IMG/VR virus record: IMGVR_UViG_2609459833_000005
Location: 1-21,924 of that record
Direction: 5' to 3' (one strand)
DNA length: 21,924 nt
From: a virus
Lineage: Duplodnaviria; Heunggongvirae; Uroviricota; Caudoviricetes
Positions 18,799 through 18,893 of the stretch are shown piece after piece. Every line of letters begins with the position of its first letter. Positions within the stretch are counted from its first letter, which is position 1. The translations under genes and the position numbers were made by a program. A model generated the notes under the pieces. The model was not told the origin of the DNA. It worked only from the letters and a program-made list of their open reading frames with translations, and ran no database searches.

Positions 18799-18870
18799 AC
18801 TGCTTCAATCCGTATAAGCTTCGCAAGGCTGTATCGCGAGGCGAAATGCAAGTTTTTTTCGCACAAGGAA

Positions 18871-18893
18871 GCCACCGGAAGGTGGTTTTTTTG
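18871..18893 (+). terminator. Strong Rho-independent terminator (tR'-like) downstream of the putative Q gene
   Basis: gccacc-ggaa-ggtgg hairpin followed by ttttttt; preceded by a second hairpin gcgaaa...tttcgc (18841-18862). Confidence 0.75.

Follow-up and report, generated by a model that had tools for sequence, protein, structure and literature searches.

In the window (the whole 21,924-nt stretch of DNA analysed here), positions 18781–18893 are probably the cassette that controls the late genes of a lambdoid prophage, with a plan like that of phage 21; the functional side of this reading we infer from sequence and from analogy with that phage. From 18781 onwards the order is TTGCAA, ACTGATCAATAAACTGC, TTCAAT (with TGC directly before it), CCG, ATAAGCT, TCGCAAGGCTGTATCGCGAGGCGAA, ATGCAAG, T7, CGCACAAGGAA and a terminator. 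An earlier note on this DNA had raised the possibility that a late promoter and Q-utilisation (qut) site lie between a Q-like gene and a strong terminator, in an interval starting at 18799. The Q-like stop codon, the strong terminator, a hairpin upstream of it and a second terminator are all present in the sequence, and the interval does hold predicted elements of a late promoter, a Q-utilisation site and tR', but the cassette begins at 18781, inside the Q open reading frame (ORF), and a start at 18799 cuts off the -35 hexamer and the promoter spacer (18781–18803).

The window is a lambdoid Escherichia coli prophage. Several complete genomes contain prophages that match positions 18100–19500 with 100% identity, and there the region is annotated as RusA, 'DUF1133 family protein', hypothetical protein and DNA methyltransferase. 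Gene order in the window is DUF968, RusA, Q, terminator, methylase and tRNAs, and in a 100%-identical prophage holin, lysozyme and terminase genes lie downstream of Q, the methylase and the tRNAs.

The Q-like protein and the Q21 lineage

The Q-like antiterminator gene (18238–18798; plus strand, as are the cassette elements, the small ORF, the second terminator, the methylase gene and the tRNA genes given below) runs from an ATG at 18238 to a TAA at 18796–18798 and encodes a 186-aa DUF1133 protein, assigned here from Pfam, PHROG, profile and predicted-fold comparisons; the same ORF is called by RefSeq in identical prophages, where such proteins are labelled merely 'DUF1133 family protein'. It is the last gene of the early-right (nin/rus) region, just ahead of the predicted late promoter and the late genes. 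The best Pfam family is DUF1133 (PF06576, E = 4e-104), and the protein also matches PF06530 (Phage_antitermQ) at 32.3 bits, above the gathering cut-off of 26, as well as PHROG 753, 'anti-termination protein Q-like'; a Pfam search gave no match to PF06323, the Q82 family. Three Q families are recognised, namely Q21 (PF06530), Q-lambda (PF03589), which is not a structural homologue of Q21, and Q82 (PF06323), which has an equivalent gene position and regulatory role, and PF06576 is missing from that published three-family census (PMC9388147).

Comparisons with Q21 itself place the protein more closely. A phmmer search with the single 186-aa sequence against the Q21 chains of 6P18 and 6JNX gave E = 5e-5, and a ten-sequence profile against the Q21 chains in the PDB gave E = 1e-8. 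Alignment of 35 DUF1133 sequences with 22 Q21-family sequences by hhalign gave a probability of 98.2% (E = 6e-14) over 136 columns, covering Q21 residues 7–155 of 162, and in precomputed Pfam matches the close relatives of Q21 carry both PF06530 and PF06576. When an AlphaFold model of the protein (mean pLDDT 71; C-terminal half above 85; residues ~40–95 of low confidence) was searched with Foldseek, the top 12 PDB matches were all Q21 chains, each with probability 1.00 and TM scores of 0.63–0.75 normalised to the target, while the next match reached only E = 0.5. Phage 21 Q21 (6P18, 6P19 and 6JNX) is only about 20–27% identical to the window's protein but has the same predicted fold; DUF1133 differs in having additional sequence, unmatched in Q21, that separates the Q21-like N-terminal helix from the C-terminal domain and is modelled at low confidence. 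Judged by these profile and model comparisons, the 186-aa protein belongs, as a divergent member, to the Q21 lineage, and DUF1133 can be read as a family of Q21-type antiterminators, sister to PF06530, with predicted antitermination activity. Our literature search on DUF1133 found no paper on the family, and so no member with demonstrated antitermination activity. The earlier note had suggested comparing this protein with the Q families, and the comparison returned homology to an antiterminator family, Q21, rather than to a non-antiterminator family.

Predicted promoter and pause elements

The predicted -35 hexamer of pR', TTGCAA (18781–18786), lies within the last Q codons and is kept as a TTG-type hexamer in relatives: in 24 representative loci one lies 16–18 bp ahead of the -10. 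It is followed by a 17-bp spacer, ACTGATCAATAAACTGC (18787–18803), which is a candidate Q-binding element (QBE) by its position relative to that of phage 21. The conserved part of this spacer is its -10-proximal half, AAACTGC (18797–18803), and a spacer consensus 'AAA..GC' is common to DUF1133 and Q21-family loci and aligns by position with the phage 21 subsite QBEd (AATGAGCA). Across the spacer and the -10 (18787–18809) there is also an imperfect direct repeat, ACTGATCAAT / ACTGCTTCAAT, with a 12-bp period, which is found in the window's subgroup only. The predicted extended -10 (18801–18809) consists of TGC and the hexamer TTCAAT (18804–18809), part of a conserved TTnAAT. Transcription is predicted to start at 18814–18816, either at A18814 by analogy with the phage 21 'ATAAGCT' or at A18816 by the 7-nt rule, and the start is followed at 18815–18820 by TAAGCT, a -10-like hexamer that is identical to the annotated sigma-dependent pause element (SDPE) of phage 21 and is predicted to act as one here.

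The literature-based annotation of the phage 21 late region in record OL657228 (our locus L044, whose coordinates are used here) provides the reference for this layout. In phage 21 the Q stop codon is at 1974, the -35 TTGACA at 1981–1986, the QBE ATTGAGCA/AATGAGCA at 1989–2004 inside the spacer, the -10 AACACT at 2004–2009, the start at A2016, the SDPE TAAGCTG at 2017–2023 and the terminator at 2018–2065. The order of elements, with the -35 at the 3' end of Q, the QBE in the spacer, then the -10, start, SDPE and terminator, is that of the window; the ATAAGCT heptamer (18814–18820 in the window) is identical, and in phage 21 the start is the A just 5' of TAAGCT. The distance from -35 to SDPE is 34 bp in the window versus 36 bp in phage 21, and the Q stop and the terminator end are 95 bp versus 91 bp apart. 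Q82, for its part, works with a late pause and a downstream binding site, unlike the layout seen here.

Several features count against reading the interval as such a cassette. The predicted -10, TTCAAT, has a T rather than an A at position 2, the normally critical -11; the -10 of phage 21 is AACACT. Its offset to the SDPE is 11 bp, compared with 13 bp in phage 21. Finally, the window spacer lacks a clear 8-bp direct repeat, its two 8-bp halves agreeing at only 2/8 positions, whereas the phage 21 QBE consists of two 8-bp subsites. An automatic promoter scan, which demands an A at position 2 of the -10, called no promoter in the interval. The window has a single composite promoter/pause pattern where chance predicts 0.48, which is not significant alone; the case therefore rests on the position of the elements and on their conservation across loci.

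We also considered whether TAAGCT might itself be the -10 and discarded this, because no -35 lies at 16–18 bp. The same conclusion follows from Providencia and Edwardsiella, where a near-consensus promoter (TTGACT-16 bp-TATAGT) precedes the pause hexamer by 13 bp, and from phage 21, where the start is annotated just 5' of TAAGCT.

Conservation across DUF1133 and Q21-family loci

Loci encoding DUF1133 were collected from 38 species genomes, 80 viral contigs and four phage records, together with five Q21-family loci, which yielded 72 distinct downstream regions; a wider Q21-family sample from viral contigs gave only copies that were 98–100% identical, and four divergent members were added individually. 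TAnGCT (TAAGAT in L002) was found at a fixed offset of 10–13 bp from a -10-like hexamer in 59/72 distinct regions, and in those 59 the -10-like hexamer lies 16–18 bp from a TTG-type -35. The whole Escherichia/Klebsiella group has TTnAAT, 17 bp from the -35. In Klebsiella, Enterobacter and Citrobacter, whose Q proteins are 56–61% identical to that of the window, the arrangement is TTGCAA-17 bp-TTGAAT followed by TAGGCT; in Providencia (40–47% identity) it is TTGACT-16 bp-TATAGT followed by TATGCT; and in Edwardsiella (32–33% identity) it is TTGACA-16 bp-TAGTAT followed by TACGCT. Providencia and Edwardsiella thus carry TATAGT and TAGTAT where Escherichia and Klebsiella have TTnAAT, and their offset from -10 to pause hexamer is 13 bp, like that of phage 21. 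The five Q21-family loci carry TA[AT]G[CA]T, with TATGCT, TAAGCT or TAAGAT in members from Salmonella, Serratia, Photorhabdus and Pantoea. On these alignments TAnGCT appears to be a near-invariant mark of both the Q21 and the DUF1133 branches.

The promoter and pause elements recur where Q is only 33–60% identical to the window's Q and the flanks cannot be aligned. They also slide relative to the Q stop codon: in Providencia they come after it, in the window and the Klebsiella group they are inside the ORF. Close relatives have their final Q codons frameshifted with the DNA unchanged; the sliding and the frameshifted tail over the same DNA argue that the constraint is on DNA and not on protein. 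These data bear on the suggestion that the terminator at 18871–18892 merely ends the early-right operon, that is, the Q mRNA, and that late transcription really starts from a promoter somewhere else, perhaps closer to the lysis genes, with the motifs described above being fortuitous. Such a view would account for a non-canonical -10 that the scan leaves uncalled and for a composite motif that is insignificant in one window, but it would have to explain the recurrence of the motifs, in the same order and place, across dozens of divergent loci and in the phage 21 cassette, which has been characterised by experiment, as well as a module that moves relative to the stop codon, and the promoter scan found no alternative between 18893 and the downstream genes. 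We consider it very unlikely.

Some DUF1133 loci depart from the common pattern. A subgroup with a 184-aa DUF1133 protein (L006, L010, L104 and L119–L121) has a near-consensus promoter, TTGACT-18 bp-TATATT, at the Q stop and is without TAnGCT; the leader of this subgroup also differs, with two hairpins before the terminator, and these members may use different pausing or loading. Two further loci, L012 and L030, come from records labelled Candidatus Nanosynbacter (a MAG) and Vagococcus, and probably represent enterobacterial prophage contigs that are contaminants or were binned wrongly.

A conserved box in the initially transcribed region

Directly overlapping the pause hexamer is a 28-nt box, GCTTCGCAAGGCTGTATCGCGAGGCGAA (18818–18845), which is conserved in primary sequence and holds the first hairpin (hairpin 1, 18818–18842). 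The box sequence is kept in the Escherichia and Providencia groups and partly in the Edwardsiella group; at this position the Klebsiella-type group conserves another box, and phage 21 has none, its terminator hairpin beginning there, at +3. Hairpin 1, GCUUCGC(11 nt)GCGAGGC, folds at -10.6 kcal/mol (z = -1.5), which alone is not beyond chance. Pair counting in a 21-sequence alignment gave no covariation for it, 87.0% of cells being paired compared with 86.5% in shuffles, and the alignment shows one compensatory cell and several uncompensated single substitutions in the arms. With a paired fraction equal to that of the shuffled control and a single compensatory change, we rejected hairpin 1 as a conserved RNA helix. 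The box also contains an 8-bp direct repeat, CGCAAGGC/CGCGAGGC, which is unlikely to be the QBE: it is downstream of the pause element, within the DNA that would lie under a paused polymerase, whereas Q21 binds upstream. Candidate roles for the box are pause tuning, an extra loading determinant and a functional part of the leader RNA.

As a loading determinant, the box could supply either another -10-like hexamer, AAGGCT, lying 10 bp beyond TAAGCT and accompanied by GC-rich repeats that would tune the sigma-dependent pause, or a hairpin in the nascent RNA, such that DUF1133-type Q would load in a manner unlike Q21. Starting inside the pause element, the box spans the DNA that would be occupied by a polymerase paused at about +16 to +18; its sequence is conserved, a further 'AGCT' follows TAAGCT at one helical turn in most aligned Escherichia, Providencia and Edwardsiella sequences, and each subgroup has its own box. 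Yet the hairpin shows the uncompensated arm substitutions described above, some members (ACAGCT, ATAGCT) have lost the A from position 2 of the second hexamer, and a role in cis cannot be told apart from one in RNA stability or as a small RNA (sRNA). We therefore hold this account of the box to be unlikely. A broader form of the idea is that DUF1133-type Q, as a large sister branch of Q21, uses a modified loading site in which the subgroup-specific box is a required qut component that phage 21 lacks, acting either through a second -10-like hexamer or through a hairpin in the nascent RNA, with a conserved constitutive leader of ~78 nt as a by-product that might serve as an sRNA in lysogens; this proposal we regard as doubtful.

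The leader itself might have a function in trans. It combines a 5' hairpin, an internal U7 tract, a terminator hairpin and a U7 tail, an arrangement resembling the usual Hfq-binding module, and the whole leader folds with z = -3.5. The predicted ~78-nt constitutive leader could also be a trans-acting, Hfq-binding sRNA like StxS, with the box as its seed or functional part, a role that can coexist with the cassette. The box is kept across Escherichia, Providencia and Edwardsiella despite Q proteins only 33–47% identical. StxS is an Hfq-dependent sRNA derived from the pR'–tR' leader, and its authors propose that such RNAs are common; it is likewise a short constitutive pR'–tR' transcript, made by a prophage with the same downstream organisation (tRNAs, moron slot and lysis genes), in which a 258-nt leader of the Stx1 and Stx2a phages of O157 Sakai is cut by RNase E to 74 nt (PMC7547250). 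However, no sequence similarity was seen between StxS and the window leader, an Rfam scan of 18600–19500 with E up to 10 gave only sub-threshold chance matches, the best of them far below gathering scores, the internal U7 is confined to the window's subgroup, and the unrelated Klebsiella-type box at the same place fits a cis role specific to the Q subtype better than a shared target in trans. An sRNA function for this leader is, in our judgement, quite improbable.

Termination and leader length

The intrinsic terminator tR' (18866–18893) has a core stem at 18871–18885, formed by GCCACC (18871–18876), a GGAA loop and GGTGG (18881–18885), followed by T7 at 18886–18892, and an A/G-rich 5' flank can extend the stem. 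The stem begins 72 nt after the Q stop and the T-tract ends 94 nt after it. Folded alone, the terminator reaches -13.6 kcal/mol (z = -4.6), and 0/200 shuffles fold as well. An automatic terminator scan reported the 18872–18885 hairpin on the minus strand only, though the T7 is on the plus strand, so the scan under-reports here. Upstream, 10 nt after hairpin 1, lies the internal U7 tract (18853–18859), which varies from T6 to T8 among close relatives and is absent from other subgroups. A 'hairpin, spacer, U-tract' layout has been hypothesised to be a possible Q-dependent terminator (PMC9388147). We dismissed hairpin 1, the 10-nt spacer and U7 as such an element, since the tract is confined to one subgroup, varies in length and would make no sense inside the leader; the chance that they act in this way is very small.

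From the predicted start, the terminated leader would be ~78 nt. The earlier note had called such a leader unusually short, and a short leader is indeed predicted, but not an unusual one: the leader of phage 21, the nearest characterised system, is ~46–50 nt, and across 50 distinct DUF1133 loci the predicted start and the end of the T-run lie 60–108 nt apart (median 78), the window itself measuring 79 nt. In lambda the 6S RNA leader is 194 nt, about 2.5 times that of the window. It takes a comparison with lambda 6S RNA, or with the 258-nt StxS precursor leader of the O157 Sakai Stx phages (PMC7547250), for the window's leader to look short. Going by predicted starts, the compact interval is normal for the Q21-type family and is no sign of unusual control.

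A separate cargo module downstream of tR'

Megablast matches to SfV, phiP27 and many Stx2 phages begin at ~18884–18965 and run on through a small ORF, the second terminator and the methylase. The mosaic joint lies at 18894–18925, the similarity starting just after each phage's own terminator T-tract; in SfV, which has a different Q, the putative terminator lies 107–142 bp after the Q stop. That similarity to phages with other Q types begins only after tR' argues that Q, pR' and tR' form one exchangeable module, and by the same comparison the small ORF, second terminator and methylase are a separate one.

The first gene of this late cargo, the small ORF (19016–19213; 65 aa; PHROG 331), has a weak TrmB-like winged-helix match and is kept in SfV (orf47) and phiP27 (L23). 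Overlapping its stop codon is the second intrinsic terminator (19200–19223), composed of GCCTTCAG/TGAAGGC (19200–19217) and T6, which folds at -10.5 kcal/mol (z = -3.6); the hairpin is kept in SfV and phiP27, with a weaker T-tract in SfV. Next come a DNA methyltransferase gene (N6_N4_Mtase; 19364–20422; PF01555, E = 3e-42), also annotated in related prophages, and three tRNA genes with CAT, TCG and TCT anticodons (20463–20714; ARAGORN), at a position annotated as Ile-Arg-Arg in STEC17-183 and as ileZ and argO in phiP27. A TerB-family gene (20813–21316) follows the tRNAs and is itself followed by a DUF3927 gene. In phiP27, stx2e lies after the tRNAs at the place of the TerB gene, which marks this place as a cargo slot under the same (predicted) late promoter.

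The gap between the small ORF and the methylase (19224–19366, 140 nt) is itself highly structured, folding at -62.1 kcal/mol (z = -4.7; 0/200 shuffles fold as well), with a long hairpin at ~19238–19273 and others at 19311–19331 and 19336–19354. It is kept in SfV and phiP27, where differences in the 3' arm (CACTCACCAGCC versus CACCTGCCAGCC) still allow wobble pairing; Rfam gave no match for 19224–19366.

The second terminator had been taken in the earlier note to suggest multi-step antitermination control over late cargo, in which each terminator would need a separate event or factor, for example the winged-helix ORF at the second, giving staged cargo expression. Two intrinsic terminators ~330 nt apart do bracket a small ORF with a weak TrmB-type helix-turn-helix match, but that match scores 18.1 bits against a Pfam cut-off of 25.6. 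RNA polymerase modified by Q is processively resistant to terminators over many kilobases and many terminators (10.1101/651190), so that with a Q21-type modification a single loading event would be enough for both. Moreover, the second terminator is part of the small ORF/terminator/methylase cargo module, which in SfV and phiP27 comes after each phage's own Q gene and own terminator. The proposal of stepwise control thus does not hold up, and we consider staged expression highly improbable.

Predicted late switch

Under the preferred reading of the interval as a phage 21-type cassette, we suggest the following sequence of events, in which promoter activity, start site, pause, Q binding site and antitermination are all predicted from the sequence elements and by analogy. 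RNA polymerase with sigma-70 would initiate at pR', which overlaps the 3' end of Q, with a start at ~18814–18816; sigma region 2 would then re-bind TAAGCT, and the polymerase would pause near +16 to +18. Without Q, the polymerase would escape and stop at tR', leaving a leader of ~78 nt. Once the 186-aa Q21-type protein has accumulated, it would bind DNA in the promoter spacer beside the paused complex and load onto the polymerase, where, like Q21, it would narrow the RNA-exit channel such that terminator hairpins cannot form. The modified polymerase would pass tR' and the second terminator (19200–19223) and proceed through the small ORF, the methylase, the tRNAs and the TerB-family gene, presumably reading on to the lysis and structural genes beyond the window.

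Implications for enterobacterial prophages

The analysis removes a false lead, in that the short pR'–tR' interval is the normal design of a phage 21-type late switch. A DUF1133-type Q also lies directly upstream of the pertussis-like toxin operon eplBA in phage Rac-SA53 (locus L002, 3007–5229), with a cassette of the same plan as that of the window (TTGATT-17 bp-TATCTT, then TAAGAT); this toxin is likely to be under a DUF1133-type late switch. TAnGCT offers a simple way to find late promoters in many enterobacterial prophages, some of which, such as Rac-SA53, have toxin or other cargo genes just downstream.
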